A DNA stretch of 18,993 nt, from IMG/VR virus record IMGVR_UViG_2534681765_000010. One strand, given 5' to 3'. The notes under the pieces were generated by a model that was not told where the DNA came from, did no database searches, and saw only the letters and a program-made list of their open reading frames with translations. The DNA comes from a virus. Lineage: Duplodnaviria; Heunggongvirae; Uroviricota; Caudoviricetes. The position numbers were made by a program, and so were the translations under genes. This document shows positions 4,801 through 18,993 of this stretch, one piece after another; within the stretch, counting starts at the first letter, position 1; each line of letters starts with the position of its first letter.

Positions 4801-4994
4801 CCTTTTTGCATCAGGCGTAAACGGGCCAGCATTGAAACAATGCATATTTTATCCAATAGCTCCCGTTCTTGTTTCCTCTTGTTAATGGCATCTTCAGTAA
4901 ATACTGGGTTACTGATAGTGACACCAATTTCAAAACAACCTTCAGACGTATTAACGTTTGGTAATAACGTTTTCATTATCGCACCCTCAACAAT

Positions 4995-6399: not shown

Positions 6400-6632
6400 C
6401 AGTCAGAGTTTCTTGCTAACCAGCGATGCGCGCCAGCTTCGGTTTTAAACGTTTTGCTTTTGGTATACGTCATCGCGGTGAACGTGCCGTCCTGGTTGGG
6501 AAACACGCCGCACACCAGAGATTCGTTGTTGCCAAGATCGATAGTATCCATGTTGACCTCATTTCCCCTTAACGCCGGGGTAGCGGAACAAAAACCTGCT
6601 GCATAGTTATTAAAGTTGAACCCTGCCGTCAT
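6399..6632 (-). CDS. Small hypothetical protein (77 aa, or 50 aa from internal start at 6551)
   Basis: ORF translationally coupled to the 216-aa gene; internal start MDTIDLG has a good gagg RBS. Confidence 0.4.
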   Translation of the reverse strand: MTAGFNFNNYAAGFCSATPALRGNEVNMDTIDLGNNESLVCGVFPNQDGTFTAMTYTKSKTFKTEAGAHRWLARNSD

Positions 6633-6843
6633 GTTCTTACGCCTCGGGCTGGCTACTTAACCCCTGACCACTGCCGGGTAACTCGAAGTATTGCCCTGCA
6701 TTCTGTGGGGTGGAGTGAGGGAATGAATGAGGTTTAGAAAAATGAACTTTACAGGTCAATGTTTTTTTATCAAAACATTTTAAGCAGGCAGCTGTTAAGC
6801 CATCACCACGATGGCATACAGTTAATCAAATAGATGAGGTTGG

Positions 6844-7482
6844 TTAAATATCTTGTTGAATTTTAAAGCATACGCCCAATATGCAAGATAGATCATCCAG
6901 CATAATTGAAGGGTAGCGAGGATTCGTGGGGACTAAAAGAATATCCGGCCCTTCTATCTCCAGTTTACGAATGACAGGTGTTGTGGTCCCTTTGGGTAAG
7001 GCAAGGACAATATTTCCTGGTTGTACGGTTCGATCGGGATCAACAAAAACTGTTGAACCATTTGGGATGGAAACTCCCCCACCAGATGTTGACATACTGT
7101 CACTCTCTAGAACAACTGCAAAGGTATTGGCCGGGATTTCTCCGACAAGCTGCACACAAGAGGTTATTGAGGAATTTTTCATATAATCACTCCAGCTTGC
7201 TGCCTGCTGAAGTGATAGTAGCGGAACCGTTTTTATCGGCGGTAAAGATAGATCAAGCGAATCACCTGTATTTAACTCTCCTCCATTAAGAAGCCAATTT
7301 TCGTTTACTTTCAATATCTTTGCCAGTGAACTTATGTAACGCGAGGACGGCGCTCCTCCACCGTTCATCCATTGACTTACGGAGCCTTTTGATGCGCCAG
7401 TGGCATTGACAAGGTCTTTGCCTTTCAGGTTTAGCGCATGCATACGTTGGGTTATGCGTTCAGATATTGTTTGCTTGCTCAT
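6844..7482 (-). CDS. cI: CI-like prophage repressor (N-terminal HTH, C-terminal LexA/S24-like autocleavage domain)
   Basis: 212 aa; N-terminal LNLKGKDLVNATGASKGSVSQWMNG helix-turn-helix; C-terminal Ser (VLESDSMS) and Lys (VIRKLE) consistent with an S24 Ser-Lys dyad; divergent from the Cro-like gene across an operator-like intergenic region. Confidence 0.85.
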   Translation of the reverse strand: MSKQTISERITQRMHALNLKGKDLVNATGASKGSVSQWMNGGGAPSSRYISSLAKILKVNENWLLNGGELNTGDSLDLSLPPIKTVPLLSLQQAASWSDYMKNSSITSCVQLVGEIPANTFAVVLESDSMSTSGGGVSIPNGSTVFVDPDRTVQPGNIVLALPKGTTTPVIRKLEIEGPDILLVPTNPRYPSIMLDDLSCILGVCFKIQQDI

Positions 7483-7544
7483 GTTTTGATTTTAAAACAC
7501 AGATGGTTTTGTTTCTTGACTTTCTTTGGTTTTGATTATTAAAC
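7483..7544. promoter_or_regulatory. Immunity-region operator/promoter: two 16-bp sites gttttgattttaaaac (7483-7498) and gttttgattattaaac (7529-7544) with a ttgact -35-like hexamer at 7516-7521
   Basis: Repeated partially palindromic sites between divergent repressor and Cro-like genes, read directly. Confidence 0.5.
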
Positions 7545-7573
7545 TTTTGGCGTTCAGTTTTATGGAGCGACTC

Positions 7574-7804
7574 ATGAAAAAATCAGAAGTATTAGGCTAT
7601 TTTGGCGGAGTTGTTAAAACAGCCGCAGTTCTAGGAACGTCAAAAACCACAGTCAGCATGTGGGGGGAAGAGGTTCCGTGGAAATGGGCGTTGCTAATTC
7701 AGGCAGTCACTGCCGGGGCGCTCAAATATGAGTTACACATACCGACGGTTGTCATTCCCGGTTCTGATCATAATCCGCCTTCTAACCAAGGGGGGGATTC
7801 ATGA
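7574..7804 (+). CDS. Cro-like / YdaS-family HTH protein
   Basis: ATG 7574 with ggag RBS; MKKSEVLGYFGGVVKTAAVLGTSKTTVSMW... HTH; divergent from the repressor; stop overlaps the next start (ATGA). Confidence 0.7.
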   Translation: MKKSEVLGYFGGVVKTAAVLGTSKTTVSMWGEEVPWKWALLIQAVTAGALKYELHIPTVVIPGSDHNPPSNQGGDS

Positions 7805-8226
7805 AAATCAAGCATGAACACATCCGCATGGCGATGAATGCCTGGGCGCGTCCTGATGGCGAAAAAGTTCCAGCAGCTGGAATAACCCAGGCTTATTTTG
7901 AGTTGGGTATGACGTTCCCAGAACTGTATGACGACAGCCATCCGGAAGCCCTGGCTCGCAATACCCAGAAAATTTTCCGCTGGATAGAGAAAGACACCCC
8001 TGATGCAGTTGAAAAAATTCAGGCGTTGTTACCAGCGATCGAAAAGGCAATGCCACCTTTGCTGGTGGCCAGAATGCGCAGCCACAGTTCAGCTTATTTT
8101 CGGGAGCTGGTGGAGACGCGGGAGCGACTGGTGAGAGACGCTGATGATTTTGTCGCAGTGGCAATCGCCGGTTTCAATCAGATGAACCGTGGTGGCCCGG
8201 CAGGAAATGCTGTGGCAGTGCATTGA
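7801..8226 (+). CDS. YdaT-like (CII-analogue) regulatory protein
   Basis: 141 aa beginning MKIKHEHI, as I recall for Rac prophage YdaT; immediately follows the Cro-like gene. Confidence 0.65.
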   Translation: MKIKHEHIRMAMNAWARPDGEKVPAAGITQAYFELGMTFPELYDDSHPEALARNTQKIFRWIEKDTPDAVEKIQALLPAIEKAMPPLLVARMRSHSSAYFRELVETRERLVRDADDFVAVAIAGFNQMNRGGPAGNAVAVH

Positions 8227-8297
8227 GTGATAATAGCCATATCGAATCACTTCCGGCAACTCGTGAGTAAAAAGATTCGGTATCAGAAGAGGTGAGT

Positions 8298-9368
8298 ATG
8301 GCTAACGCCTGGCTCAGATTATGGCATGACATGCCAAATGACCCTAAGTGGCGAACAATTGCCAGGGTGTCAGGGCAGTCAATTGCAACAGTGATGGCAG
8401 TGTATATCCACCTCCTGGTGAGCGCGTCACGAAATGTCACGCGAGGTCACATTGATGTCACGACAGAAGATTTGGCAAGTGCGCTCGACGTGACAGAAGA
8501 GGTAATTGATTCAATTTTGCAGACGATGCAGGGGCGGGTACTTGATGGTGATTTAATCACTGGATGGGAAAAACGCCAGGTGCTTAAAGAGGACAACGGC
8601 AATATTTCGCAAACCGCAAAATCTCCTGCAGAGCGCAAGAGGGCGCAGCGAGAGAGGGAAAGAAAGCGGGAACAAAATGGCGATTGTCACGGCGCGTCAC
8701 GAAATGTCACGCACATGTCACGACGAGTCACGACAGATAAAGATACAGATAAAGATACAGATCAAGAAGATCAAAACACTATGGTCCATGGCGTAAAAAA
8801 CGCCACGAACCAGGCAGGGGATGTTCAGACCGTCAATCTTGGTCAGCCAGCAGGCACGACACCGGAAGCCGATTCAGCGTATGCGCTGAAAGCCGATTCG
8901 GGCGCTGTGCAGCAGGTGATGACCGCAAGGCCGGAGCAATCACACCAACTGCAGCAGCCTGAAGCCGATTCCGCCATTCAGCGGGAAGCCGATCGGGTAG
9001 TCACGGAAAACACCGGGCAGCCTGTGAGACGAGTGGATTATCCGGATGTGTTCGAACAGGTCTGGCGGGAATACCCGTTGCGTGCTGGGGCAAACCCGAA
9101 GAAATCCGCTTTCAGTGCCTGGAAGGCCAGATTACGCGAGGGGGTGTCACCAGAGGCCATGCTGGATGGCGTGAGGCGTTACGCAAGATACCTTGCGGCT
9201 ACCGGGAAAACGGGAACGGAATTTGTTCAGCGAGCGACGACGTTTTTTGGACCGGACCGGAATTTTGAAAACCCCTGGCTGCTCCCGGTAAGCGGCACGA
9301 ACAACCAGCGTTGTGTGAATCATATTTCTGAACCGGATACCGAAATTCCACCGGGCTTCAGGGGGTAA
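8298..9368 (+). CDS. Replication initiator protein (lambda O-like in function) with origin-like iterons inside the gene
   Basis: 357 codons from ATG 8298 (gaggtgag RBS; track start is an upstream GTG at 8292); position after cro/cII-like genes; two clusters of 10-bp-phased gtcac repeats plus an AT-rich tandem repeat within the ORF. Confidence 0.65.
   Translation: MANAWLRLWHDMPNDPKWRTIARVSGQSIATVMAVYIHLLVSASRNVTRGHIDVTTEDLASALDVTEEVIDSILQTMQGRVLDGDLITGWEKRQVLKEDNGNISQTAKSPAERKRAQRERERKREQNGDCHGASRNVTHMSRRVTTDKDTDKDTDQEDQNTMVHGVKNATNQAGDVQTVNLGQPAGTTPEADSAYALKADSGAVQQVMTARPEQSHQLQQPEADSAIQREADRVVTENTGQPVRRVDYPDVFEQVWREYPLRAGANPKKSAFSAWKARLREGVSPEAMLDGVRRYARYLAATGKTGTEFVQRATTFFGPDRNFENPWLLPVSGTNNQRCVNHISEPDTEIPPGFRG
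8422..8461. repeat. Iteron cluster 1: four gtcac motifs phased at 10-11 bp (8426, 8436, 8446, 8457)
   Basis: Read directly; contains the 21-bp unit gcgcgtcacgaaatgtcacgc (8422-8442), repeated exactly at 8692-8712. Confidence 0.65.
8686..8759. repeat. Iteron cluster 2: five gtcac motifs phased at 10-11 bp (8686-8731), then 12-bp AT-rich tandem repeat gataaagataca x2 (8736-8759)
   Basis: Read directly; iterons followed by an AT-rich tract is the classic layout of a lambdoid ori inside the initiator gene. Confidence 0.65.
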
Positions 9369-9408
9369 GTGTTGATTTCTGGTCATGAGGTAATTTTCAG
9401 GAGGACTT

Positions 9409-9831
9409 GTGGCAAAAGTTTTTACACAAGAAGAGCGGGAAAAAATTAAAGGGCAGGTTGTTGAACTCGTACGCCAGAGTGGGCGCGAGACGTTACGACA
9501 ACTGGAAACTAAAACTGGGGCAACAAGATATCTGATGAGCGTTCTGGCCAGAGAGCTGGTTGCCAGTGGCGATGTATACAACTCTGGTTACGGGTTATTC
9601 CCGTCTGAACAGGCGCGTAAGGACTGGCAAAATGCCCGTAAAAAGCTCTCAAGGGCAAAGCTGAAGAAACCATCTGCGGTTGATCCGGACCTTATCTGGT
9701 CATTACCTGACGGAGAAATACGTCGCTACGACAGGCGTCAGAACATAATCTGTCGCGAGTGCCGGAAGAGTGAGGTTATGCAGCGAGTGCTGGCGTTTTA
9801 TCAGGGTAATTTTCAGGAGGTGATGGCGTGA
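9409..9831 (+). CDS. Hypothetical protein (140 aa), possible DNA-binding / replication accessory
   Basis: GTG start 9409 preceded by the 16-bp RBS module ggtaattttcaggagg; sits between the initiator gene and the DUF4406-like gene. Confidence 0.5.
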   Translation: MAKVFTQEEREKIKGQVVELVRQSGRETLRQLETKTGATRYLMSVLARELVASGDVYNSGYGLFPSEQARKDWQNARKKLSRAKLKKPSAVDPDLIWSLPDGEIRRYDRRQNIICRECRKSEVMQRVLAFYQGNFQEVMA

Positions 9832-10123
9832 GAGTGAGAGTCTATATCGCCGGTCCAATGACCGGGTATAAAAATTTCAACCGTGAGGCGTTTCACAATG
9901 CGGAAGAGGAACTGAAACGGGAAGGGCATACCGTTTTAAATCCGGCTGTGCTTCCGGATGGGCTGACACAGCCGCACTACATGGATATTGCATGGCAATG
10001 ATTCGTTGTGTGGATGCGATTTACATGCTGAAAGGCTGGCAGCGGTCAGCAGGTGCTAAGGCAGAACTGGCGCTGGCGGAGAAACTGGGGCATGCAGTTA
10101 TTTTCCAGGAGGAGGTACAGTGA
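9828..10123 (+). pseudogene. DUF4406-like (nucleoside 2-deoxyribosyltransferase-like) gene split by a -1 frameshift near 9996-10001
   Basis: Part 1 (9828-10001) VRVYIAGPMTGYKNFNREAFHNAEEELKREGHTVLNPAVLPDGLTQPHYMDIAWQ; part 2 (9998-10123) MIRCVDAIYMLKGWQRSAGAKAELALAEKLGHAVIFQEEVQ. Joined they follow the DUF4406 pattern as I recall it; caa-tga looks like caa-atg minus one A. Confidence 0.55.
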
Positions 10124-10395
10124 ATATCGACGCAACAATGACGATTGGTACGGCCCTCAATACGGGGCTGGCGCTTCTTGGTTGGTGCTACATCATGTTC
10201 TGCTCATGGCGGTGGCTGTCACTGATGTTACTGAAAGAATGGAATAAACGCTGTAAACAGACGCAGCGGCAGAAGGCAATGAATGCGTTTTTTGAGACCT
10301 TCGATATTGACAGTATAGAACCAGGAGAGCCAGCTCGCGTGATTAGCAGAGGTGACGTTGTAATTCTTGTATACCGGAGTGAAGAGAAAGCATAA
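10120..10395 (+). CDS. Small hypothetical membrane protein (91 aa)
   Basis: GTG start overlapping the upstream stop; hydrophobic stretch LALLGWCYIMFCSWRWLSLMLL. Confidence 0.4.
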   Translation: MNIDATMTIGTALNTGLALLGWCYIMFCSWRWLSLMLLKEWNKRCKQTQRQKAMNAFFETFDIDSIEPGEPARVISRGDVVILVYRSEEKA

Positions 10396-10509
10396 TCCAA
10401 ATCTGAATAATTAAATCCAGCACTGTAAATAAAATTTAATCCTTAACCGGAGGGATTTCTGCACCCTCAGAACATCAGGAGGCCGCCCGAAAGGGCGGTG
10501 GAGATAATA

Positions 10510-11034
10510 ATGGAAATAACTAAAGAACGATTATTGGAAATAGCAAATCTTAGTGAAAGGGCATTAAGTGATGGGAGGATTATTTCTCCTGATGCTTATG
10601 AATCAGTTACAAGTATAGAAATAATAACGATGGCCAGGATGCTTCTTGGTTGCCTCAAAAAAGAATATAAAAAAAAGGTGGATAGCAATGCTAATATATA
10701 TGATATTTTGGACAGTTGGGGGGCTTGGGCTGCAGCTGGAAATAGTTCTATCAACTGGCAGCAAGTGGCTGATAAATATAAAGATGTAGTACCTCATGGT
10801 AAGAAATTACGCCGTCAGTGTGGCAACGATGAAGGTCGTATGATTGATACCTGCATGTTGAAGCTTAAACAATATAGAATAGATGACTATGAGTTAATTA
10901 TCGCTCATTTTGTTATAGGTATATCTTTGCGTACAATAGCACGAAGGTACAAATGTTCAGATGGAACAATAAGAAAGAATATACAACTTACAATGGGAGT
11001 ATTGTTAGGATTGTCTTTTTATGTGCAATTATAG
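10510..11034 (+). CDS. Antiterminator Q-like protein (Q933-type fold suspected) with N-terminal extension; first gene of the AT-rich island
   Basis: ATG 10510 with ggag RBS; motifs LDSWGAWAAAG, RRQCGNDEGRMIDTCMLKLK and CSDGTIRKNIQ resemble the Stx-phage Q family as I recall it; AT-rich codon usage. Confidence 0.45.
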   Translation: MEITKERLLEIANLSERALSDGRIISPDAYESVTSIEIITMARMLLGCLKKEYKKKVDSNANIYDILDSWGAWAAAGNSSINWQQVADKYKDVVPHGKKLRRQCGNDEGRMIDTCMLKLKQYRIDDYELIIAHFVIGISLRTIARRYKCSDGTIRKNIQLTMGVLLGLSFYVQL

Positions 11035-11039
11035 ATATA

Positions 11040-11519
11040 TCACATGAGCCTTGTTATGTCCTTTAGACGCGACCAGGTAGTATAAAATTTTTTAAATGTA
11101 ATAAGCAGGAAAAAAATTCCCACTTGGAGTAATAGTTGGGCATATGTGTGCTCGTCGGCATCTTTTACTAGTGGGAATTTAAACTTTAGTGTATCAGGGA
11201 AAAATAATAAAATGATAAAAATAATACAAACTGATAGTAACCATCCCATAGTGGAGTGCATTTCTTCGGTCAGTTTTTTCAAATAACCAGTTTTTCCTAT
11301 ATTTCTAATTAGCGTATTATCTCTAGCTGAAGCAATCAAGGTAAGCGAACCTAAAACAAAGCCAAATAATATCCCAGAAAATGTAGAAACGGCCGAAGCG
11401 ATTGGCTGAATTTGTGCAAAATTTAGCTTTGCAGAAAGAGGCCATGCGATGATACAAAAAACAACAGAGGCTAAATTATAACCATAACTGTACAAAGTTA
11501 TCAATTTCCCCTTTTTCAT
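11040..11519 (-). CDS. Small integral membrane protein (159 aa, about 4 predicted TM helices); distal gene of a two-gene operon
   Basis: Four hydrophobic segments (LASVVFCIIAWPL; VSTFSGILFGFVLGSLTLIASA; MGWLLSVCIIFIILLFF; LLLQVGIFFLLITF); starts 16 nt downstream of the 304-aa gene; strongly AT-rich. Confidence 0.7.
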   Translation of the reverse strand: MKKGKLITLYSYGYNLASVVFCIIAWPLSAKLNFAQIQPIASAVSTFSGILFGFVLGSLTLIASARDNTLIRNIGKTGYLKKLTEEMHSTMGWLLSVCIIFIILLFFPDTLKFKFPLVKDADEHTYAQLLLQVGIFFLLITFKKFYTTWSRLKDITRLM

Positions 11520-11534
11520 ACCATCGCTCCAAAA

Positions 11535-12449
11535 TTAATCAACTCTTTGATTGGCTACTCCAAAGTATGCCTTCAATTCATCATCTTTACTATCTTTTGC
11601 AAGAGTTAAGGCGCTCCAAATGCTGCCAACTAATGGATACCTACCTCCAAGTTCAACATCTGTGTAGTAGACTAATTTGTCTGCTACAAGATCGATAGGA
11701 TGCTGTACACCGGTCTCAATGTCTTGGGTTTCTAGTTTAAGTTTTTCAACCTCAAAAGTCTCTAGTGTTTCTTTAAAGGCTCTTTTTAGTTGAGAACCTA
11801 GATAGCGAGATTCAGGATCTTCAGAACGACTATCCCCACGTAATGTAAGATTTACTTTGGCAGAATTAGTACCATTTAGAGTGGCTATCAATGCATTGTT
11901 GAAGTTATGTTCAACATCCTCATATAGTTGCACATTCTTTGGCCGAGCGATACCGATTTCTAGAGTTTTGATTCGAACTTCATTACGCATCAACCACTTT
12001 AAACTACTGGTCTGAATGATGGGATTAACAGTTGTATTTTGTGAACTGTTGGAAAGATATTTACTTAATAGCACCCAGCCATAACAGAGTCTGTTTCGTT
12101 GAATTATTAAAACTGAGTCTTGGGTATAAAAATGAAAATAAGCTTTTTCTAATAAGTTTTCATTGATTTCAAGTTTAATTTCTCTTTCTTCACCTCCGGC
12201 TACAGCAACATGAGGGAGATTATTGGTTCTGTGTTTTCCTATAACTCCCCTGAAACCATAGTCGGTTCTTTCCATGAAGCGCATTTCAACTAGTTTATTT
12301 CCTATTTTACGTACAGTTTTGTCTCGGCCTTCGCTGTATGACTCAAAAATTTTTGAAAAAACAGCTTCAGGTGAATTAACTCCTGCATTTGTATCAGTGC
12401 TTATAGTGTGACATTGATAAAAATCGAAGAAAAAGCGCTTGCTAGCCAT
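11535..12449 (-). CDS. Hypothetical 304-aa cytoplasmic protein; promoter-proximal gene of the two-gene operon (candidate sensor of an abortive-infection pair)
   Basis: Long uninterrupted ORF, AT-rich; no Walker A or other motif I recognise; preceded by a ~390-bp AT-rich promoter-like region (12450-12840). Confidence 0.7.
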   Translation of the reverse strand: MASKRFFFDFYQCHTISTDTNAGVNSPEAVFSKIFESYSEGRDKTVRKIGNKLVEMRFMERTDYGFRGVIGKHRTNNLPHVAVAGGEEREIKLEINENLLEKAYFHFYTQDSVLIIQRNRLCYGWVLLSKYLSNSSQNTTVNPIIQTSSLKWLMRNEVRIKTLEIGIARPKNVQLYEDVEHNFNNALIATLNGTNSAKVNLTLRGDSRSEDPESRYLGSQLKRAFKETLETFEVEKLKLETQDIETGVQHPIDLVADKLVYYTDVELGGRYPLVGSIWSALTLAKDSKDDELKAYFGVANQRVD

Positions 12450-12897
12450 TGCAAAAATTTCCTGTAAAAAATAATTACATACTTAAGATACTACAAAGAA
12501 TAATGCGTACGCAAAATTTTTTGTTGAGTAGAATATGTTCGCGGGGTATTTTTCGTTAAGATATAATTACCATGGTAACTTTTGCGTTGGTAATGCATTA
12601 TGTGGTGGAGAAAAAGAGAGAGTCTTATCTTTAAATTATCGCCAGCCTATATGACTATATGAGTAGTATTTAGATGGGAAATTGTTGAGTTATTGAAAGG
12701 AACCATAACCTTTATGTAAAATTACTGCGGGTGCTTGAGGTTATCTGTCTCAGGCATGCCACCAAAAGGCAGATAGAGAAAAGCCCCAGTTAACGTTACG
12801 CGTCCTGCAAGACGTTTAACATTAATCTGAGGCTCAATCTATGAACGGCAAATCTAGGTTAGCCTCTTACGTGCCGAAAGGCAAGGAGAAGCAGGCT

Positions 12898-13053
12898 ATG
12901 AAGCAGCAAAAGGCGATGTTAATCGCCCTGATCGTCATCTGTTTAACCGTCATAGTGACGGCACTGGTAACGAGGAAAGACCTCTGCGAGGTACGAATCC
13001 GAACCGGCCAGACGGAGGTCGCTGTCTTCACAGCTTACGAACCTGAGGAGTAA
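12898..13053 (+). CDS. hokD: Hok/Gef-family type I toxin (51 aa), HokD/RelF-like
   Basis: MKQQKAMLIALIVICLTVIVTALVTRKDLCEVRIRTGQTEVAVFTAYEPEE: single TM helix then the conserved RKxLCE..R....EVA.F.AYE Hok pattern; aaggag RBS 10 nt upstream. The track ORF start at 12841 is an in-frame extension that is probably not translated. Confidence 0.7.
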   Translation: MKQQKAMLIALIVICLTVIVTALVTRKDLCEVRIRTGQTEVAVFTAYEPEE

Positions 13054-13121
13054 GAGACCAGGTGAGGGAGAAATCCCTCGCCACCTCTGATGAGTCAGGC
13101 ATCCTCAACGCACCCGCACTT

Positions 13122-13148
13122 AACCCGCTTCGGCGGGTTTTGTTTTTT
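13122..13148 (+). terminator. Rho-independent terminator (aacccgc-ttcg-gcgggtt + T-run) downstream of hok
   Basis: Perfect 7-bp GC-rich stem, 4-nt loop, then tgtttttt; read directly. Confidence 0.65.
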
Positions 13149-13220
13149 CCTGGCATTCTGGTTTACAATTCGCACGCCAGCCTGAACAACTGGCACCTGC
13201 TGCGCCAGCAGAGACAACCG

Positions 13221-13493
13221 ATGGCGCACAAAACCAAATTTCACAATTCTGATACCGCCCTTGCCATCCGGCATGGGCGGCGTTCACACGCATTTAAAAC
13301 CGACTGGTACCAACACCCACCATGTACTGAAGAACAGGCCGAATGGCTAATTCATAACTACCGCAGACGCGGATACGAGATTAAGAAAGCCCTCAGCCTC
13401 GATTATCGTCACTGGATAATCTATGTCAGGCTCCCTTATTCCGAACGCCCACCGCGTCCGTCCCGCACATTCCAGCAACGCATCTGGAGGTAA
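13221..13493 (+). CDS. Hypothetical protein (90 aa), Rem-like by position (between hok and the DUF968 gene, as in Qin prophage)
   Basis: ATG 13221 lies downstream of the terminator; the track ORF from 13062 runs through the terminator and is probably over-extended; stop taa 13491-13493 immediately precedes the next gene start. Confidence 0.35.
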   Translation: MAHKTKFHNSDTALAIRHGRRSHAFKTDWYQHPPCTEEQAEWLIHNYRRRGYEIKKALSLDYRHWIIYVRLPYSERPPRPSRTFQQRIWR

Positions 13494-13494
13494 C

Positions 13495-14544
13495 GTGCGG
13501 GTATTACTTCGACCTGTTCCGGTACCGGAACTTGGGCTGGTGGTGCTAAAACCGGGCCGTGAATCCATGCAGGTATTTCATAACCCTCGAGTTCTGGTGG
13601 AGCCGGAACCGAAAAGCATGCATGGTCTGCCGTCCGGAGTCGTTCCTGCTGTTCGCCAGCCGCTGGCGGAGGATAAATCATTACTGCCATTTTTCAGCGA
13701 TGAGCGGGTGATTCGTGCTGCTGGTGGTGCTGGTGCATTGTCTGACTGGCTGTTACGCCACGTTAAATCCTGCCAGTGGCCTCATGGTGACTATCATCAC
13801 AGTGAAACCGTTATTCACCGTTATGGTACTGGCGCAATGGTGTTGTGCTGGTACTGCGACAACCAGCTGCGTGACCAGACTTCTGAATCACTCGGGCAGC
13901 TTGCTCACCAAAACCTGTCAGCATGGATGATTGATGTCATCCGCCACGCAATGAATGGCACGCAGGAGCGGGAATTATCGCTGGCTGAATTATCCTGGTG
14001 GGCGGTCTGCAATCAGGTGGCGGACGCGCTACCAGAGGCAGCATTACGTCGTTCTCTGGGGTTACGTGCGGAAAAAATTCGCTCAGTATACCGCGAGAGC
14101 GACATCGTGCCGGGAGAGCAGACCGCCACCAGCATGCTGAAGCAGCGCACAAAAAATCTTGCGCCGCTGCCTCACGCCCACCAGCAACAGAACCCACCAC
14201 AGGAAAAGACGGTGGTCAGCATTGCCGTTGATCCTGAGTCTCCGGAATCTTTCATGAAACGACCTAAACGTCGCCGCTGGGTTAACGAGAAATACACACG
14301 CTGGGTGAAGACACAGCCGTGTGCGTGTTGTGGTAAGCCAGCCGACGATCCCCATCACCTGATTGGTCATGGTCAGGGCGGAATGGGGACAAAATCTCAC
14401 GATATTTTCACGCTACCGCTGTGTCGGGGGCATCACAACGAGCTTCATGCGGATCCGCTGGCGTTCGAAGAAAAGCATGGTTCTCAGGTTGATTTAATTT
14501 TTCGTTTTCTTGATCACGCCTTTGCAACTGGCGTGCTTGGGTAA
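13495..14544 (+). CDS. DUF968-like prophage protein with C-terminal Cys/His-rich (HNH-like) motif
   Basis: GTG 13495 after a ggagg RBS (alternative ATG 13567; track start 13423 overlaps the upstream gene); C-terminal CACCGKPADDPHHLIGHGQGGMGTKSHDIFTLPLCRGHHNELH. Confidence 0.6.
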   Translation: MRVLLRPVPVPELGLVVLKPGRESMQVFHNPRVLVEPEPKSMHGLPSGVVPAVRQPLAEDKSLLPFFSDERVIRAAGGAGALSDWLLRHVKSCQWPHGDYHHSETVIHRYGTGAMVLCWYCDNQLRDQTSESLGQLAHQNLSAWMIDVIRHAMNGTQERELSLAELSWWAVCNQVADALPEAALRRSLGLRAEKIRSVYRESDIVPGEQTATSMLKQRTKNLAPLPHAHQQQNPPQEKTVVSIAVDPESPESFMKRPKRRRWVNEKYTRWVKTQPCACCGKPADDPHHLIGHGQGGMGTKSHDIFTLPLCRGHHNELHADPLAFEEKHGSQVDLIFRFLDHAFATGVLG

Positions 14545-14556
14545 AAGAGGTGACTG

Positions 14557-14916
14557 ATGCTCATAGATTTGGTTTTACCTTACCCGCCGACGGTGAACAC
14601 TTACTGGCGACGCCGTGGCAGCACATATTTTATCTCGGAGGAGGGAAAGCGTTATCGCCGGGCTGTGGCGCTTATTGTTCGCCAGCAGCGGCTGAAATTA
14701 AACCTGTCCGGAAGGCTGGCGATAAAGGTGATTGCAGAGCCACCGGATAAACGTCGTCGTGACCTGGACAATATCCTGAAAGCACCACTGGATGCACTGA
14801 CACATGCGGGGTTGCTTATCGACGACGAGCAGTTTGATGAAATTAATATTGTGCGCGGTCAGCTTGTTCCTGGTGGGCGGTTGGGGATAAAAATCACAGA
14901 ACTGGAGTGCGCATGA
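14557..14916 (+). CDS. rusA: RusA Holliday-junction resolvase
   Basis: 119 aa; LPYPPTVNTYWRRRG ... DKRRRDLDNILKAPLDAL ... GGRLGIKITEL matches RusA motifs including the catalytic Asp cluster as I recall them. Confidence 0.85.
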   Translation: MLIDLVLPYPPTVNTYWRRRGSTYFISEEGKRYRRAVALIVRQQRLKLNLSGRLAIKVIAEPPDKRRRDLDNILKAPLDALTHAGLLIDDEQFDEINIVRGQLVPGGRLGIKITELECA

Positions 14917-15602
14917 ATAACCAGTATTTACAGTTTGTTCGTGAGCAACTCATGATTGCCACCGCCGATTTGAGTGGATCAACAAAAGGGCAGCTTGAAG
15001 CCTGGCAGGAGAATGCCATGTTCGATACAGGGCGTTACAGGCGAAAAAAAATCCGGTACCGCGATGAAGTGACTGGAAAAATGATAACGCGGGATAATCC
15101 ACCAATCCCGGGAAAGCAATCGCTGGCGAAAGGTTCATCAATTGCCCTGGTCAGTCCGGTTGAGTTTTCGACATCATCATGGCGACGCGCCGTTCTGTCT
15201 CTTGAAGAGCATCAGAAGGCGTGGGTGCTGTGGGTATACAGTGAAAATCCGAGTTGGGATTATCAGGTGGTCATTGCGAAATGGGCGTGGGATAAGTTTC
15301 AGGTGCATTTTGGCACCAGAAAAATTACAGGGAAAACGCTTGAGCGTCTGAAGAAATTAATCTGGCTGGCGGCGCAGGATGTCAGGGGGAGGATTACTGG
15401 GCGTGACGTCTACCAGCGACAGGAACTTGCCAGACTGTGTGGAGTTAAGCCTGACAACTGGAGCCATAATTATGCGAACTACTGGCGTGAGATGTGCGAC
15501 ATTTTTAAGAAACTCGATACAGAATCCTTGATTTGCACCGTGAAAATGAGATCGCAACAAAAAGCGACCTTTTCACGACGAGATATTGCAAAAGTCAATT
15601 AA
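14907..15602 (+). CDS. Late-gene antiterminator Q-like protein (QuuQ-type, assigned mainly by position after rusA)
   Basis: 231-aa ORF overlapping rusA by 10 nt and followed directly by a strong intrinsic terminator; the sequence itself is not one I can match confidently. Confidence 0.5.
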   Translation: MRMNNQYLQFVREQLMIATADLSGSTKGQLEAWQENAMFDTGRYRRKKIRYRDEVTGKMITRDNPPIPGKQSLAKGSSIALVSPVEFSTSSWRRAVLSLEEHQKAWVLWVYSENPSWDYQVVIAKWAWDKFQVHFGTRKITGKTLERLKKLIWLAAQDVRGRITGRDVYQRQELARLCGVKPDNWSHNYANYWREMCDIFKKLDTESLICTVKMRSQQKATFSRRDIAKVN

Positions 15603-15649
15603 ATCGCATACATTTTATGTAAATGTGATATTTTGCCGTATAGTGTGTA

Positions 15650-15674
15650 AACCCGCTTAAATGCGGGTTTTTTG
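15650..15674 (+). terminator. Rho-independent terminator (aacccgc-ttaaat-gcgggtt + tttttt) after the Q-like gene
   Basis: Perfect 7-bp stem with the same stem sequence as the hok terminator at 13122-13139, then a T-run; read directly. Confidence 0.75.
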
Positions 15675-15703
15675 CTTAACTCTGTGGACCTTTTTATCTG
15701 TAG

Positions 15704-15728
15704 TTGTAAGATATGGATATTCTTACAA
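15704..15728. promoter_or_regulatory. Perfect palindromic operator-like site ttgtaaga-N9-tcttacaa about 20 bp upstream of the kinase start
   Basis: 8-bp inverted repeat arms (15704-15711 / 15721-15728), read directly; sits between the upstream terminator and the kinase RBS. Confidence 0.55.
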
Positions 15729-15746
15729 TTTAGGTCGGTGAGCTTA

Positions 15747-16511
15747 ATGGAAGAACAGCACGGTAATTACTTTATAAAACGAATTCAGTTGATTGGAAGG
15801 GGTGCATTTGGCTTTGTTGAACACGTTAAGGTTTACAACCTCAACAAGGGTGAATGTGGGGATTATGCTAGAAAGGTTTTAGCCCCCGAAAAACCAGAGC
15901 TTTTGGCGCAAATAGAGCAGTTTAGAAGGCGTTTTAAAAGGGAGGTCGTGTATCAATCACATTGCGTACATAGCAATATTGTTCCTATTTATTTGTGCGA
16001 TTTGTTTGCCGAGAATCCATGGTTCATTATGGATAAAGCAGAATGTGATCTTGAGCACGAAATAACGAACAACCTTCTTACAACAGATCAAAAAATTTCA
16101 ATAGTGAAAATGGTATTAGATGGTGTAGCTCACATCCATGCGAAAGGCTATTTACACAGAGATATAAAACCATTTAATGTCTTGCGATTTAGCGACGGAA
16201 CATACAAGGTGTCTGATTTTGGTCTGGTAAAAGATACAAATCCCGAAGGGGATACCACTAAATTGACCGAGATCGGTACCCGTATGGGAAGTACAAGATA
16301 TATGGCTCCCGAGATTTTATATAATGCCGAGTATTCAGTTAAGACTGATGTTTATGCGGTGGGGCGGTTAATTGAGGACTTAAATTTAGATGATAAAAAA
16401 ATAAAGCCTATCATAGCGAAGTGTACCAGGATGGATAAAGATGATAGATATCAGACAATAGATGATGTGGCGTTTGATTTTGTGCATTCTTTTTTAAGGA
16501 GTGAGTCATGA
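15747..16511 (+). CDS. Hanks-type (eukaryotic-like) Ser/Thr protein kinase, catalytic domain only
   Basis: Gly-rich loop GRGAFGFV, AxK lysine (YARKVL), catalytic loop HRDIKPFN, DFG (SDFGLVKD), APE (YMAPEIL), DxxxxG (DVYAVGRL); ATG 15747 (track start 15672 is upstream in-frame and overlaps the terminator). Confidence 0.8.
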   Translation: MEEQHGNYFIKRIQLIGRGAFGFVEHVKVYNLNKGECGDYARKVLAPEKPELLAQIEQFRRRFKREVVYQSHCVHSNIVPIYLCDLFAENPWFIMDKAECDLEHEITNNLLTTDQKISIVKMVLDGVAHIHAKGYLHRDIKPFNVLRFSDGTYKVSDFGLVKDTNPEGDTTKLTEIGTRMGSTRYMAPEILYNAEYSVKTDVYAVGRLIEDLNLDDKKIKPIIAKCTRMDKDDRYQTIDDVAFDFVHSFLRSES

Positions 16512-17251
16512 TTCAGCTGATAGCGACTTCATCATTCTCGTATCCAAAAGAACCAGGTAGGGTCAACGAAGATTCATTGCTTCCTCCCAAAATTGTAGGG
16601 GATGGCATCTTATTTGCCGTAGCTGATGGTGTAGGTTCATACACTGGTGCCAGTCAGGCTTCATCAATGGCAATTGCTGAACTTTCAGCATTGACAAGCT
16701 TATCTTTTGACACAGTTCCGGATGTATTTGATGAAGTTAAGCGAAAGGTTATGTCGTTAGCTGATGTTAATGATGAGTTCGATAAAGCTGCTACTACACT
16801 TACGTTTTGTTATGTTTGTGATAGCGGAATTATTATTGGTCATATTGGTGATTGTCGTTTGTATTGCATTGGAGAGAAGAAAGCATACCAATTGACGAAG
16901 GACGATACCAGGCATCAGATGCTAATTGATCAGAATATTTTTAAACCCAGAGATTTGAAGGATAAACCGGGCAAAAATATCTTAACGACGGCTATAGCCT
17001 CAAATGTTGATATGGAATACGACTGTGATTTTATCACATGGAAAGATTTACCTAGTATTAACGGGGTATATCATCTGTGTATCATGTCTGATGGGGTTCA
17101 TAACGTTTGGGAAAAACGCCCCAGATTTACATCAAATACGATGAGTAATAGTCAGAAGTTTTCTAATGGCATTTTGCGTCGTATAGAGAGAGCCGGACCT
17201 GATGATGACTTTTCTTTAGTAAGTATAATGGTGCGTGTGACGTCAGATTAG
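16508..17251 (+). CDS. PP2C-like Ser/Thr protein phosphatase, translationally coupled to the kinase
   Basis: Start overlaps the kinase stop (ATGA); PP2C-like motifs FAVADGVGS, IGHIGDCRLYC (GDxR), LTKDD, MSDGVHN. Confidence 0.7.
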   Translation: MIQLIATSSFSYPKEPGRVNEDSLLPPKIVGDGILFAVADGVGSYTGASQASSMAIAELSALTSLSFDTVPDVFDEVKRKVMSLADVNDEFDKAATTLTFCYVCDSGIIIGHIGDCRLYCIGEKKAYQLTKDDTRHQMLIDQNIFKPRDLKDKPGKNILTTAIASNVDMEYDCDFITWKDLPSINGVYHLCIMSDGVHNVWEKRPRFTSNTMSNSQKFSNGILRRIERAGPDDDFSLVSIMVRVTSD

Positions 17252-17324
17252 TTGTATAAACTCAGTAGGGAATGCTAATTTCACATACAACATAGTTAAA
17301 GAAAACTTAATTTTAATGTAAAAA

Positions 17325-17347
17325 GGCTGCCCTCAGGCGGTCTTTTT
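17325..17347 (+). terminator. Rho-independent terminator (ggctgcc-ctca-ggcggtc + ttttt) after the phosphatase gene
   Basis: 7-bp stem with two G-U pairs, 4-nt loop, T-run 17343-17347. Confidence 0.55.
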
Positions 17348-17470
17348 ATGCTCGAAAATTGATGCAGTACGTTAAACGCGCTGGTGGTTGCGAATACCGG
17401 TCTTTCAGCTTGCTGGCTTTTTAGACAAGAGTTATTGGTATGTCACGTTAACCAGAAAAGGGAAAAAGAC

Positions 17471-17668
17471 ATGCTAAAACAGCAGGATATGACCGAAACC
17501 GCCAGAGTGGTGTTTAATGAATTAAGCGTCACCGAACCGGCGACCGTCGGGGAAATTGCGCAGAATACTTACCTTTCACGCGAACGCTGCCAGTTAATCC
17601 TGACCCAGCTTGTTATGGCGGGTCTGGCAGATTATCAGTTCGGTTGTTACAGACGCCTTCTGCAGTGA
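17471..17668 (+). CDS. Small winged-helix-like DNA-binding protein (65 aa)
   Basis: ATG 17471 after an aggg RBS-like stretch; ATVGEIAQNTYLSRERCQLILTQLVMAGL resembles a recognition helix-wing region. Confidence 0.45.
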   Translation: MLKQQDMTETARVVFNELSVTEPATVGEIAQNTYLSRERCQLILTQLVMAGLADYQFGCYRRLLQ

Positions 17669-17818
17669 AGGCTTTTTAATTTGTGGTAATGGGCGGCTGG
17701 TGGGTGTTAGCGGCACCTGCCAGCCATCTGCTCATGCGTTGGGGTCACAAGCAAACCTCAGGCCCATCTGCTTTGCGCAAAAGCAGTATGAGCCTATCAG
17801 AGAAGTGCTTATTGATCT

Positions 17819-18868
17819 ATGACTAATACTGTAAAAATATCCAGTTGTGAGTTGATCAACGCTGATTGCCTGAAATTTATCCAGACCTTACCGGAAAACT
17901 CTGTCGATCTGATAGTCACAGACCCGCCATACTTTAAAGTGAAGCCCGAGGGCTGGGATAACCAGTGGGAGGGCGACGATGATTACCTGAAATGGCTGGA
18001 CCAGTGTCTGGCGCAGTTCTGGCGGGTACTGAAGCCTGCCGGAAGTCTTTACCTGTTCTGTGGTCATCGCCTGGCATCTGACACCGAAATCATGATGCGT
18101 GAGCGCTTTAATGTGCTGAACCACATTATCTGGGCGAAGCCGTCCGGACGCTGGAACGGGTGCAATAAGGAAAGTCTGCGGGCGTATTTTCCGGCAACAG
18201 AGCGCATTCTGTTTGCAGAACATTATCAGGGACCGTATCGCCCGAAAGATGATGGCTATGTGGCACAGGGGCGCGAGCTAAAACAGCACGTCATGGCCCC
18301 GCTGATTTCTTACTTTCGTGATGCGCGTAAATCACTGGGAATAACGTCAAAACAGATAGCGGAAGCCACCGGAAAGAAAAACATGGCTTCGCACTGGTTT
18401 GGTACCAGTCAGTGGCAGTTACCGAACGAGGGTGATTACAACAAATTGCAGGCGTTGTTTGCGCGTGTTGCGGCAGAAAAACATCAGCGCGGGGAACTGG
18501 AAAAGCCACACCACCAGCTGGTCAGCACATACAGTGAGCTGAACCGGCAGTACACGGAACTGCTGAGTGAATATAAAAATTTGCGGCGGTATTTCGGTGT
18601 GACGGCGCAGGTTCCGTACACCGATGTCTGGACGCATAAACCGGTGCAGTACTATCCAGGAAAACATCCGTGCGAAAAACCGGCAGAAATGCTGCAGCAG
18701 ATAATCAACGCGAGCAGTCGTCCGGGAGACCTGGTTGCAGATTTTTTTATGGGTTCAGGTTCAACGGTAAAAGCGGCGATGGCACTGGGGCGTTGTGCGA
18801 TTGGTGTTGAGCTGGAGACAGGACGTTTTGAACAGACAGTCAGGGAAGTTCAGGATTTAATCGTTTGA
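17819..18868 (+). CDS. DNA methyltransferase, amino-MTase (N6-adenine or N4-cytosine) with DPPY motif IV preceding the C-terminal AdoMet-binding motif
   Basis: 349 aa; VTDPPYF catalytic motif near the N-terminus and FFMGSGST AdoMet-binding motif near the C-terminus; no cognate restriction endonuclease in the window. Confidence 0.85.
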   Translation: MTNTVKISSCELINADCLKFIQTLPENSVDLIVTDPPYFKVKPEGWDNQWEGDDDYLKWLDQCLAQFWRVLKPAGSLYLFCGHRLASDTEIMMRERFNVLNHIIWAKPSGRWNGCNKESLRAYFPATERILFAEHYQGPYRPKDDGYVAQGRELKQHVMAPLISYFRDARKSLGITSKQIAEATGKKNMASHWFGTSQWQLPNEGDYNKLQALFARVAAEKHQRGELEKPHHQLVSTYSELNRQYTELLSEYKNLRRYFGVTAQVPYTDVWTHKPVQYYPGKHPCEKPAEMLQQIINASSRPGDLVADFFMGSGSTVKAAMALGRCAIGVELETGRFEQTVREVQDLIV

Positions 18869-18917
18869 AACGGATGAGATTGCAGAATTAATTACGCACC
18901 ATTATTATTCTGCTCCC

Positions 18918-18993
18918 GGCCCTTTAGCTCAGTGGTGAGAGCGAGCGACTCATAATCGCCAGGTCGCTGGTTCAAATCCAGCAAGGGCCACCA
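18918..18993 (+). tRNA. tRNA with CAU anticodon, Ile2 (lysidine)-like by resemblance to E. coli ileX/ileY; Met cannot be excluded from the anticodon alone
   Basis: 76 nt ending CCA; acceptor stem ggccctt/aagggcc; D-arm gctc...gagc; anticodon loop ctCATaa; T-arm gctgg-ttcaaat-ccagc. Folded by eye. Confidence 0.85.

Follow-up and report, generated by a model that had tools for sequence, protein, structure and literature searches.

A conserved, folded leader directly upstream of the M.EcoGII-type methylase gene in the late region of a lambdoid prophage

The methylase gene of the prophage region analysed here is directly preceded by a leader of about 135 nt that is conserved, folded and more conserved than the genes flanking it, and that is apparently undescribed. 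The region, called the window below, is one entire draft contig of 18,993 nt, and the late operon starting in it would be that of a mosaic lambdoid prophage with ompW as its integration site. The module formed by the methylase gene (17819–18868) and the ileZ tRNA gene is itself widespread, ordinary and already characterised in prophage late genes, and is present in 3665 of 5426 complete E. coli genomes. We hold with considerable confidence the joint account in which a lambdoid late operon carries an M.EcoGII-type methylase and ileZ, the window ends at a contig break, and the leader probably gates translation. The narrower proposal, that the leader is an undescribed cis-regulatory RNA which gates translation of M.EcoGII-family methylases by switching between two folds in lambdoid prophages of Enterobacterales and Orbales, is tentative, and we put its chances at slightly below even. 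The features are collected in Table 1. Their order (Q, terminator, cargo, methyltransferase, tRNA), claimed earlier from the letters of the window alone (hereafter the sequence-only reading), is borne out by Pfam calls and hairpin scans.

Table 1. Features of the late region, with positions counted from the first letter of the window
Feature	Position	Strand	Remarks
Late antiterminator Q, 231 aa	14907–15602	+	Pfam PF06323 Phage_antiter_Q, E 5.2e-84
Terminator-like hairpin and T-run, candidate tR'	15649–15670, with T-run to 15676	+	directly 3' of Q
Ser/Thr kinase	15747–16511	+	Pfam Pkinase, E 2e-33
PP2C phosphatase	16508–17251	+	Pfam PP2C_2, E 2e-14
Hairpin GGCTGCC/GGCGGTC and TTTTTAT	about 17325–17350	+	3' of the phosphatase gene; read from the sequence
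65-aa ORF	17471–17668	+	PHROG phrog_331, E 3e-37, function unknown
Hairpin GCCTTC..GAAGGC, T-run TTTTTAATTT	17655–17672, with T-run to 17680	+	terminator scan
Conserved structured leader, ~135 nt	17684–17818	+	directly 5' of the methylase
Leader helix P1ext	17689–17694 with 17730–17735		
Leader helix P0	17690–17694 with 17762–17766		
Leader helix P1	17695–17706 with 17714–17725		
Leader helix Palt	17727–17732 with 17750–17755		
Leader helix P5	17743–17747 with 17813–17817; 17749–17753 with 17806–17810		
Leader helix P3'	17761–17763 with 17792–17794		
Leader helix P4	17768–17774 with 17780–17786		
Orphan beta-class N6-adenine DNA methyltransferase, 349 aa	17819–18868	+	intact ORF
Sigma-70-like promoter for the tRNA array	18880–18908	+	TTGCAG, 17 nt, TATTAT; ends 9 nt 5' of the tRNA
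tRNA-Ile2 type, anticodon CAU, ileZ allele	18918–18993	+	ARAGORN; Rfam tRNA

The conservation of the leader is visible at the nucleotide level, where the leader reaches a median identity of 83%, as compared with 73% in the methylase gene and 71% in the 65-aa ORF, and synonymous sites differ by 0.58–0.86. Its structure was obtained from hand-set helices and a covariance model. These were needed since RNAalifold, run on a plain MAFFT alignment, returned 16 pairs and under-predicted the leader, owing to one-column register shifts in that alignment. The covariance model matches this position alone, on the plus strand, in 49 of 80 genome loci. Within the leader, 93% of the cells are paired as compared with at most 46% in slid controls, and 16–17 pairs show double-sided (compensatory) changes; the alignments A3 and A5 had been fitted to a model already holding P1, P3', P4 and P5. 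A further helix, GCUCAU/AUGAGC, was rejected as the observed changes break its pairing. The first scan of viral contigs recovered E. coli-type relatives alone, and a Gilliamella query supplied the distant copies. Rfam 15 gave no match to the leader in the window at E values up to 1, and for a Salmonella copy of the leader it gave only chance-level matches at E values up to 10. The leader carries no annotation in 57 phage records, and our literature search found no work linking M.EcoGII to a leader, UTR or riboswitch.

The helices are such that the leader would adopt two mutually exclusive folds. The OFF fold would combine P1ext, P1, P5, P3' and P4, so that the 13 nt directly 5' of the AUG, which has no SD, are paired; P5 ends 1 nt short of this AUG at 17819. 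The ON fold would combine P0, P1, Palt and P4 and leave the start region unpaired. By such an exchange the leader would probably throttle or gate translation of the toxic methylase, and candidate triggers of the switch may be the 65-aa protein (acting in a Com-like manner), upstream translation, the methylase itself, and SAM or SAH. A parallel is found in the com-mom system of phage Mu, in which the small protein Com binds a hairpin beside a structure that inhibits translation by sequestering the mom start codon (PMC6483171). Both arrangements combine a small ORF (the 65-aa ORF here), a hairpin (P1), a helix at the start region (P5) and an adenine-modifying enzyme. The two share no homology, and Com is a zinc finger whereas the product of the 65-aa ORF looks like a winged-helix protein. 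About one quarter of the loci keep the leader and the methylase without the 65-aa ORF, so a Com-like role for its product is hypothetical.

It is also conceivable that the spacer does not act as a cis-RNA at all, and is instead a DNA-level operator bound by the 65-aa protein, a gene for an antisense RNA or a short coding ORF. P4 comes close to a perfect palindrome, a short ORF reading MGGWWVL* in most sequences starts at a conserved AUG in the leader, and a good fold is also obtained for the minus strand (z -4.8). A strand test based on G.U pairs is ambiguous, with 92.2% paired on the plus strand and 90.8% on the minus strand, and Palt fits the minus strand better. However, P1 has 12 bp closed by a 6–8-nt loop, with double-sided changes at eight pairs and many G.U pairs, which is not operator-like, and P1ext and the outer part of P5 vary solely by G.U/G-C or G.U/A-U exchanges that are valid on the plus strand. 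The distance from the leader to the methylase AUG is constant whatever stands upstream, and the short ORF ranges from 3 to 45 codons in varying frames, for which reason a conserved peptide was rejected. We consider a DNA operator, antisense gene or short ORF unlikely.

The protein whose synthesis would be gated belongs to the beta class of N6-adenine methylases. It matches Pfam PF01555 N6_N4_Mtase over residues 29–340 (E 2.1e-44; 152.5 bits against a cut-off of 26.7), with DPPY at residues 35–38 in the N-terminal part and the SAM-binding FMGSG (FxGxG) at residues 310–314 in the C-terminal part. Solved beta-class structures in the PDB match residues 8–114 and 281–333, and nothing in the PDB matches residues 115–280. 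The dN/dS against relatives is about 0.10–0.12, that is, the gene is under purifying selection. We identify the protein by its sequence as an orthologue of M.EcoGI/M.EcoGII (REBASE; prophages of E. coli O104:H4 C227-11; EGT69837.1), a family of non-sequence-specific adenine methylases. It shares with M.EcoGII a length of 349 aa, the order DPPY, recognition region and FxGxG, the prophage location, the lack of an endonuclease partner and a neighbourhood as in phage 1720a-02, which is named in the M.EcoGII paper as bearer of a very similar enzyme. The M.EcoGII reference protein comes from a table read by machine, in which OCR errors are evident, and the identities to it and to the reconstructed ancestors are therefore lower bounds: 316 of 348 residues (90.8%) to M.EcoGII, 86.4% to Anc291 and 71.5% to SUPREM. 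M.EcoGII itself is 84.3% identical to Anc291, and the methylase of the window is thus the closer of the two to this active ancestor. The difference from M.EcoGII amounts to 32 substitutions, mostly within the target-recognition region (residues 145–246), so retention of non-specificity is inferred only.

Several published observations bear on how such an enzyme behaves. M.EcoGII is a non-specific, prophage-borne enzyme of 349 aa that is unexpressed in the lysogen, and constitutive expression leaves its clones slow-growing and unstable (PMC5778455). Six ancestors of the clade have been reconstructed; each of them methylates DNA as well as RNA, and no RNA sequence motif emerged from the two that were assayed, Anc291 and SUPREM/Anc284 (PMC11551740). 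The enzyme of the window would accordingly be an N6-adenine methylase with virtually no preference for sequence context. As it is about 91% identical to M.EcoGII, we expect it to have no target motif; a motif search in methylome data would probably yield nothing, the M.EcoGI/M.EcoGII family being already known as non-specific.

The sequence-only reading had offered an epigenetic function as one of two roles, and in its strongest form this would make the methylase a sequence-specific orphan that regulates genes in the lysogen, like Dam or CcrM. Beta-class relatives matched in the PDB, such as CcrM, are indeed sequence-specific regulators, M.PflMI, the clade's nearest site-specific relative, has CCANNNNNTGG as its recognition sequence, and the substitutions against M.EcoGII fall in the recognition region. 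On the other hand, the protein lies within a clade of active ancestors, and the charged two-helix interdomain linker, which is absent from M.PflMI (PMC11551740), is kept almost unchanged at the sequence level (residues ~214–262, with A219E, Q244K and T246M as the only three substitutions against M.EcoGII). M.EcoGI and M.EcoGII leave the methylomes of their lysogens unmarked, as do the O111 STEC homologues of 92–93% identity, for which no motif was seen in native methylomes, and the gene stands in a late operon downstream of terminators. Because the M.EcoGI/M.EcoGII family is silent in lysogens, an epigenetic role there is very unlikely.

The position of the gene points in the same direction. 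The antiterminator Q, for which no relative was found among solved structures, is followed by a non-coding stretch (~15585–15645, from the 3' end of Q) that is conserved in a Klebsiella prophage with the same Q family and is therefore likely to be the PR'/qut region. The hairpin directly beyond it has an 8-bp stem with five GC pairs followed by TTTTGCTT in the terminator scan, and by sequence it is a candidate tR'. The second hairpin marks the point from which the sequence is homologous to Stx2 phages, and the block shared with the relative L002 and phage 1720a-02 begins at its T-run. The third holds the stop codon of the 65-aa ORF in its loop and is maintained by compensatory changes in other genera (GCCTCC/GGAGGC, GCTGCC/GGCAGT). 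Three terminator-like hairpins would thus separate Q from the methylase gene, which would be transcribed through them, and the enzyme made, only upon Q antitermination in lytic growth. The terminators from consensus scans, together with published data, suggest that expression would be Q-dependent and lytic-only.

Between Q and the late module sits an AT-rich cargo pair of kinase and phosphatase genes (GC 0.38–0.39), which PADLOC matches to PD-T4-6 (1e-34) and mad6 (1e-39). The pair is found neither in the Stx2 phages nor in L002, where Q directly precedes the methylase module. The 65-aa ORF has a weak TrmB match (E 0.002, under the cut-off), and its product is a possible small winged-helix protein; the single-sequence AF2 model is poor (pLDDT 61) and unfit for a structure search. 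It lies immediately 5' of the methylase in 57 of 80 loci across Enterobacterales, with identity down to 38%. The region of this ORF was also considered as the counterpart of the Sp5 StxS/PR'-tR' region, and this was rejected as there is no homology between them.

The other part of the sequence-only reading, that the methyltransferase is an orphan, agrees with all loci surveyed. The gene and Pfam table of the whole contig contains no restriction endonuclease domain, and the adjacent endonuclease gene of a Type II R-M system is missing: neither in the window nor in about 170 related loci is the methylase flanked by a nuclease gene, its neighbours always being Q or the 65-aa ORF on the 5' side and tRNAs or lysis genes on the 3' side. 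By analogy, anti-restriction is the most likely function. The enzyme would hypermethylate progeny phage DNA before packaging, and adenine-sensitive restriction systems of the next host would then be unable to cut it. The analogy is to Mom of Mu, Hia5, Hin1523 and Nma1821, which are likewise late, tightly restrained, toxic if mistimed and nearly sequence-independent in adenine modification. These proteins and their phage types are unrelated to the methylase of the window, and protection by the M.EcoGII family in its native phage is argued by analogy; in the Mu-like systems, many restriction enzymes have been shown to be blocked by such non-specific adenine modification (PMC3299994; PMC3378877). 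One consideration counts against the account, in that a phage with heavily m6A-modified DNA would be open to attack by type IV nucleases that depend on m6A. Our literature search found no report of lambdoid-phage virion DNA hypermethylated by an M.EcoGII-type enzyme, also after induction, and no report of a plating defect of a methylase-knockout lambdoid phage on restricting hosts.

The enzyme may alternatively act during lytic growth on host or phage nucleic acids to an end other than anti-restriction, for example through m6A in RNA, by blocking host repair or Dam-dependent processes, or by marking DNA for packaging. In favour of such a role, the substrates of M.EcoGII include ssDNA, RNA and DNA:RNA hybrids and its constitutive expression harms the cell, and the literature gave no direct anti-restriction data for the family in its native phages. 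However, the activity of M.EcoGII on RNA is about 100-fold below that on DNA (Table S3), and Mom, Hia5 and Hin1523, which occupy the equivalent late and tightly controlled position in Mu-like phages, do protect DNA (PMC3299994). We judge a main role outside anti-restriction quite unlikely, and anti-restriction is retained as the preferred function.

The second gene of the module is a tRNA gene in which ARAGORN finds the anticodon CAT and Rfam a tRNA of 72.5 bits (E 4e-15), folding into a canonical cloverleaf with one non-standard pair, A27.C43. ARAGORN and several phage records label it tRNA-Met, and an elongator tRNA-Met would carry the same anticodon. Yet it is identical to ileX of K-12, the chromosomal tRNA-Ile2 of E. 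coli, at 68 of 76 positions (89.5%) as against 52 of 77 (67.5%) for metT/metU. Aligned with these, its acceptor stem has C4-G69 and C5-G68, which E. coli TilS requires, where tRNA-Met has U4-A69 and A5-U68 (PMC1635315). PGAP and curated Stx-phage records label it tRNA-Ile or ileZ, and the chance that it is a tRNA-Met is close to negligible. The tRNA-Ile(CAU) assignment of the sequence-only reading is thus confirmed. With ileX it shares CAU, the loop CUCAUAA, both determinant pairs and A73, and it differs by U6-A67 for C6-G67 (compensatory) and, in the uppermost pair of the anticodon stem, by A27.C43 for G27.U43. Judged from these determinants, host TilS would make lysidine on the tRNA, which would then read AUA. 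This codon occurs 16.1 times per 1000 codons in the window genes, 2.1 times in 24 neighbouring host genes and 36.8 times in stx2AB, being about eight times commoner in the prophage genes than in the neighbouring host genes. The promoter region of the tRNA is conserved, homologous to the Sp5 spacer and supported by a published TSS; with a conserved promoter of its own, the tRNA is probably made in the lysogen too.

The same 76 nt recur in 81 of 89 Escherichia-type loci, Stx2 phages included. The sequence-only reading had compared the layout to Stx phages, and this proved well founded, as in many Stx2 phages the interval from Q to stx is truly homologous to the module. Matches were found in 299 phage records, mostly Stx2 phages, at 83–91% nucleotide identity, and in phage Stx2a_1447 the order is Q, a 65-aa ORF, methylase, ileZ, argN, argO and stx2AB. 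The ileZ-argN-argO array 5' of stx in Sp5, Stx2a_1447 and 1720a-02 begins with the tRNA found here and has the same promoter-like upstream spacer; our literature search on ileZ, argN and argO returned nothing. Sp5, a Stx2 phage, has lost the methylase gene apart from its last ~100 nt. Phage 933W, which we take to be an Sp5-type Stx2 phage, presumably has the same ileZ-argN-argO array 5' of stx and the same methylase remnant of ~100 nt. Since the 933W/Sp5 type retains this remnant, the methylase–tRNA arrangement is probably ancestral to the stx2 locus.

From this resemblance it had been suggested that the module marks an Stx-like conversion locus, with a toxin or other conversion gene immediately past the window. 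The window stops where it does because the draft contig breaks at a repeated tRNA sequence, its end coinciding exactly with the 3' CCA of the tRNA (18993), which is the first gene of an array cut by the contig end. The interval between array and lysis genes is a known cargo slot, where 4 surveyed loci have stx and many have a nanS-p-like esterase. However, none of the 33 near-identical loci (at least 98.9% identical over 17819–18993) carries stx. After the tRNA array, 27 of them go directly to the holin, 0.37–1.0 kb past the Ile tRNA, three carry the nanS-p-like esterase and three are short or deleted. No toxin was found at any of the nine distinct places that encode an identical methylase protein; stx occurs in 2 of 80 IMG/VR loci and only in relatives at 88–89% identity, and among complete genomes the closest belong to ETEC rather than STEC. 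The arrays themselves differ, the nearest relatives having Lys(UUU)-Lys(UUU)-Gly(UCC) or Thr(UGU) followed by the holin where the Stx phages have Arg(UCG)-Arg(UCU) followed by stx. Relatives in general continue from the tRNA into further tRNAs and phage lysis genes, or into tail genes through deletions. With no stx and with tRNAs followed by lysis genes in the near-identical loci, hidden toxin cargo is unlikely, and a toxin or conversion gene immediately past the window is highly improbable. What lies beyond would rather be two tRNA-Lys genes and a tRNA-Gly gene, then the holin and endolysin genes about 0.5 kb on.

For annotation, genes of this type labelled "DNA-methyltransferase" are better read as M.EcoGII-type non-specific enzymes, and "tRNA-Met" labels in phage records as tRNA-Ile2. 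M.EcoGII serves widely as a tool enzyme and does harm if freely expressed. If the proposal made here is true, a bistable leader RNA would explain the silence of the methylase and give a natural tight off-switch, and the leader would be a second case of com-mom logic restraining an anti-restriction enzyme.

The sequence-only reading had placed Q, a terminator, cargo genes, the methyltransferase and the tRNA in this order, and every element was found at its place, as listed in the table.

Features of the window from the Q gene to the tRNA, and the basis of each
Feature	Position	Basis or remark
Q antiterminator	14907-15602	PF06323, E 5e-84
Strong terminator-like hairpin	15649-15670	computed hairpin scan
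Ser/Thr kinase and PP2C phosphatase pair, AT-rich	15747-17251	profile matches
Second hairpin with T-run	~17325-17350	read from sequence
65-aa ORF	17471-17668	third hairpin at its stop codon
Leader (+)	17684-17818	
Leader helix P1	17695-17706/17714-17725	
Leader helix P1ext	17689-17694/17730-17735	
Leader helix P0	17690-17694/17762-17766	
Leader helix Palt	17727-17732/17750-17755	
Leader helix P3'	17761-17763/17792-17794	
Leader helix P4	17768-17774/17780-17786	
Leader helix P5	17743-17747/17813-17817 and 17749-17753/17806-17810	
Methyltransferase ORF (methylase), 349 aa	17819-18868	PF01555, E 2e-44
tRNA, anticodon CAU	18918-18993	ARAGORN and Rfam tRNA model

The noncoding stretch 15585-15645, at the 3' end of Q and beyond, is conserved with a Klebsiella prophage of the same Q family (TTGCAAAA...TGATATT.TGCC.TAT); judged from this similarity it is likely the PR'/qut region, and TATAGT at 15639-15644 could be a sigma-dependent pause element. 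Between Q and the late module, the kinase-phosphatase pair forms an insertion that has its own hairpin downstream. The kinase matches the PADLOC models of the anti-phage systems PD-T4-6 and MADS mad6 (E 1e-34 to 1e-39), and the pair probably serves the prophage as a defence or exclusion cassette. Another AT-rich island (10498-12449, GC 0.35-0.37) lies amid the early/replication region and contains a second Q-family gene (178 aa, 79 AUA per 1000 codons) and two reverse-strand genes, one of 159 aa and unknown function and one DUF6731; this may be a further accessory or defence insertion.

The window corresponds to the whole draft contig APXE01000112.1 (18,993 nt, assembly GCA_000356205.2), with identical gene order. 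On the left, positions 1-230 come from the end of an IS1 that interrupts ompW, and 231-583 are the 3' part of ompW; on the right, the contig closes with the 3' CCA of a tRNA repeated within E. coli genomes. Both ends thus lie at repeats and are assembly breaks, which is why nothing is visible past the tRNA. The contig is a mosaic lambdoid prophage sited at ompW: 2041-14245 shares 98.9% identity with the potC-site prophage of strain E1433, 13122-18993 shares 99.83-99.90% with ompW prophages of ETEC strains, and at most 76% of it is covered by any one complete genome. The recombination joint is at 13122-14245, where the potC-type and ompW-type matches overlap inside a DUF968 gene.

Likeness to Stx phages had also been proposed, and the homology is confirmed. 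Homologues of 17339-18993 at 83-91% identity are present in 299 phage records, the majority of them Stx2 phages, and the block also occurs in 3665 of 5426 complete E. coli genomes (median 2 copies, maximum 14). In phage Stx2a_1447 the order is Q, 65-aa ORF, methylase, ileZ, argN, argO and stx2AB, and in the Sakai prophage Sp5 (933W type) it is Q, PR', StxS, tR', a methylase remnant consisting of the last ~100 nt, and ileZ (L176, the Sp5 locus, 2115-2341 compared with window 18767-18993). By this alignment the methylase was deleted in the 933W/Sp5 lineage, and since its remnant lies between tR' and ileZ the methylase-tRNA arrangement looks ancestral. The tRNA array after the methylase is limited to Escherichia: within 2 kb after the methylase no Ile(CAU) array was found in 77 loci of other genera, the sole tRNA among them being a lone tRNA-Asn ~0.8 kb downstream in one Morganella locus.

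The toxin or other conversion cargo expected just beyond the contig is not borne out by its relatives. All 33 loci whose identity over 17819-18993 is 98.9% or higher lack stx; 27 have a holin 0.37-1.0 kb past the Ile tRNA, three a nanS-p-like esterase, and three are short or deleted, with a deletion reaching into tail genes in some of the nearest relatives. Because stx is confined to loci at 88-89% identity (2/80 IMG/VR loci), a hidden toxin past the window is, on these sequence comparisons, very unlikely. The prophage tRNA arrays vary: 11 of 15 loci at 99.6-99.9% identity continue with Lys(UUU)-Lys(UUU)-Gly(UCC), then holin_8, holin_3_7 and an M15 endolysin, and the remaining four with Lys-Thr-Gly, Thr-Gly, Arg(UCG)-Arg(UCU) or Arg(UCU). 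ARAGORN alone reports an extra tRNA-Lys(UUU) 1 nt past the Ile tRNA in an ompW-site ETEC prophage (L001, 21696-21772), with equivalents in L004-L012; it is unannotated by PGAP and may be a degenerate copy.

ARAGORN labels the tRNA of the window as elongator tRNA-Met. This was rejected, as its identity is 68/76 to K-12 ileX versus 52/77 to metT/metU, and its acceptor stem carries C4-G69 and C5-G68, pairs required by E. coli TilS (PMC1635315), instead of the U4-A69 and A5-U68 of tRNA-Met. The tRNA-Ile(CAU) identity first proposed therefore stands, and PGAP and curated Stx-phage records label it tRNA-Ile/ileZ. Of 89 Escherichia-type loci, 81 have exactly these 76 nt, among them Stx2 phages with only 88-89% identity in the flanks. 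The top pair of the anticodon stem (27/43, window 18944/18960) is A.C where ileX has G.U, a mismatch fixed throughout the identical phage copies. AUA is used 16.1 times per 1000 codons in window genes, 31 in the kinase and 36.8 in stx2AB, against 2.1 in 24 neighbouring host genes and 2.9 in the late structural genes of one relative, indicating that the tRNA serves AT-rich accessory genes and not virion genes. A promoter-like TTGCAG-17-TATTAT ends 9 nt 5' of the tRNA. All 15 spacer variants, which differ at other positions, share the two hexamers and their distance, and a dRNA-seq study of Sp5 reported that the tRNAs have a primary TSS at the homologous position (PMC7547250). For these two reasons tRNA expression is probably independent of Q.

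The motif order of the methylase is that of the beta class (DPPY at residues 35-38, FMGSG at 310-314), and both ends match solved beta-class enzymes (RsrI, CcrM, MboIIA and others); residues 115-280 have no match in the PDB. Identity is 316/348 to M.EcoGII, or slightly more because the reference proteins were machine-read with obvious errors, 86.4% to the ancestor Anc291 and 71.5% to SUPREM. No partner nuclease gene occurs in the window or ~170 related loci, in agreement with the orphan status first proposed, and by its sequence the methylase is an orphan of the M.EcoGI/GII family under purifying selection (dN/dS ~0.10-0.12). M.EcoGII (349 aa) is encoded by a prophage and silent in the lysogen. 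Its substrates are the adenines of dsDNA and ssDNA whatever the surrounding sequence and, more weakly, those of RNA, and clones that express it constitutively are unstable and slow-growing (PMC5778455). On the lineage leading to M.EcoGII from the last common ancestor shared with M.PflMI, all six ancestors methylated DNA and RNA, neither ancestor assayed (Anc291 and SUPREM/Anc284) gave an RNA sequence motif, and the site-specific relative M.PflMI is without the charged linker (PMC11551740), which the window methylase retains in the alignment. O111 STEC homologues at 92-93% identity are classed as non-specific, and native methylomes show no motif from them. Membership of this non-specific family speaks against the discoverable target motif once expected, and we infer non-specificity and lytic-only expression.

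The leader before the methylase is more conserved than its neighbours, with a median identity to the window of 83% (methylase gene 73%, 65-aa ORF 71%); synonymous-site differences of the methylase reach 0.58 in L017, a related locus, 0.77 in Salmonella and 0.86 in Proteus. A covariance model of 44 copies found the element in 49 of 80 genome loci with a single match each; every match is on the + strand and has its end at the methylase AUG, a placement unchanged where other genes replace the 65-aa ORF. In Photorhabdus and Xenorhabdus the first hairpin alone remains; the complete element, with P1 largely rewritten, is present in Gilliamella phages and in a single distant phage from IMG/VR. It has no Rfam match, and 57 phage records contain it unannotated.

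The alignment supports, to about the same degree, two folds that exclude each other. In fold A (P1ext+P1+P5+P3'+P4) 93.2% of cells are paired, double-sided changes affect 17 pairs and the covariation score is 0.163; for fold B (P0+P1+Palt+P4), in whose score the outer half of P5 was included as a pseudoknot, the values are 93.1%, 16 and 0.154. In controls that slid the partner by 1-3 columns, 27-46% were paired and scores were at most 0.08, and no shuffle attained the observed values. P0, P1ext and Palt lie outside the aligning model and are thus supported independently: pair 49-73 of Palt occurs as C-G, U-A, A-U and U.G, P0 has a single compensatory change (in Gilliamella), and P1ext varies solely by G.U/G-C and U-A/U.G exchanges. 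A G.U-pair test did not decide the strand, and a conserved peptide from the conserved leader AUG was rejected, the short ORF there varying in length and frame. P5 puts the start region of the methylase into base pairs, taking up 13 nt of which the last lies 1 nt 5' of the AUG, and its fold is the minimum in 33 of 50 leaders (median advantage 4 kcal/mol; nearest-neighbour energies, pseudoknot excluded). Only 2/52 leaders have a Shine-Dalgarno-like tetramer at -20 to -4. A natural contrast is provided by L180-L188, leaderless IMG/VR homologues from another phage lineage (58-59% identity to the Gilliamella query enzyme), in which a terminator-like hairpin and then a canonical AAGGAG Shine-Dalgarno occur ~150 nt upstream of the methylase homologue.

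In 57 of 80 loci from the Enterobacterales the 65-aa ORF (phrog_331, with weak TrmB/winged-helix likeness) adjoins the methylase upstream. Its stop codon invariably falls in the loop of a covarying hairpin (region 17471-17680), and the ORF is missing from about a quarter of loci with leader and methylase. In Mu com-mom a small protein binds a hairpin beside a structure that hides the start codon of a toxic adenine-modifying enzyme (PMC6483171); the arrangement of small ORF, leader and methylase is alike, and by this analogy only, the 65-aa protein may be a Com-like partner. Protection from restriction has been shown for the non-specific Hia5, Hin1523 and Mom in Mu-like phages, which are unrelated to the methylase (PMC3299994). 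The literature searched gave no direct test of this role for the M.EcoGII family and no paper linking the leader to M.EcoGII. The methylase-tRNA module is already known and very common, and the structured leader may be the sole new item; by analogy, the best functional reading of the methylase would be hypermethylation of progeny DNA against restriction.
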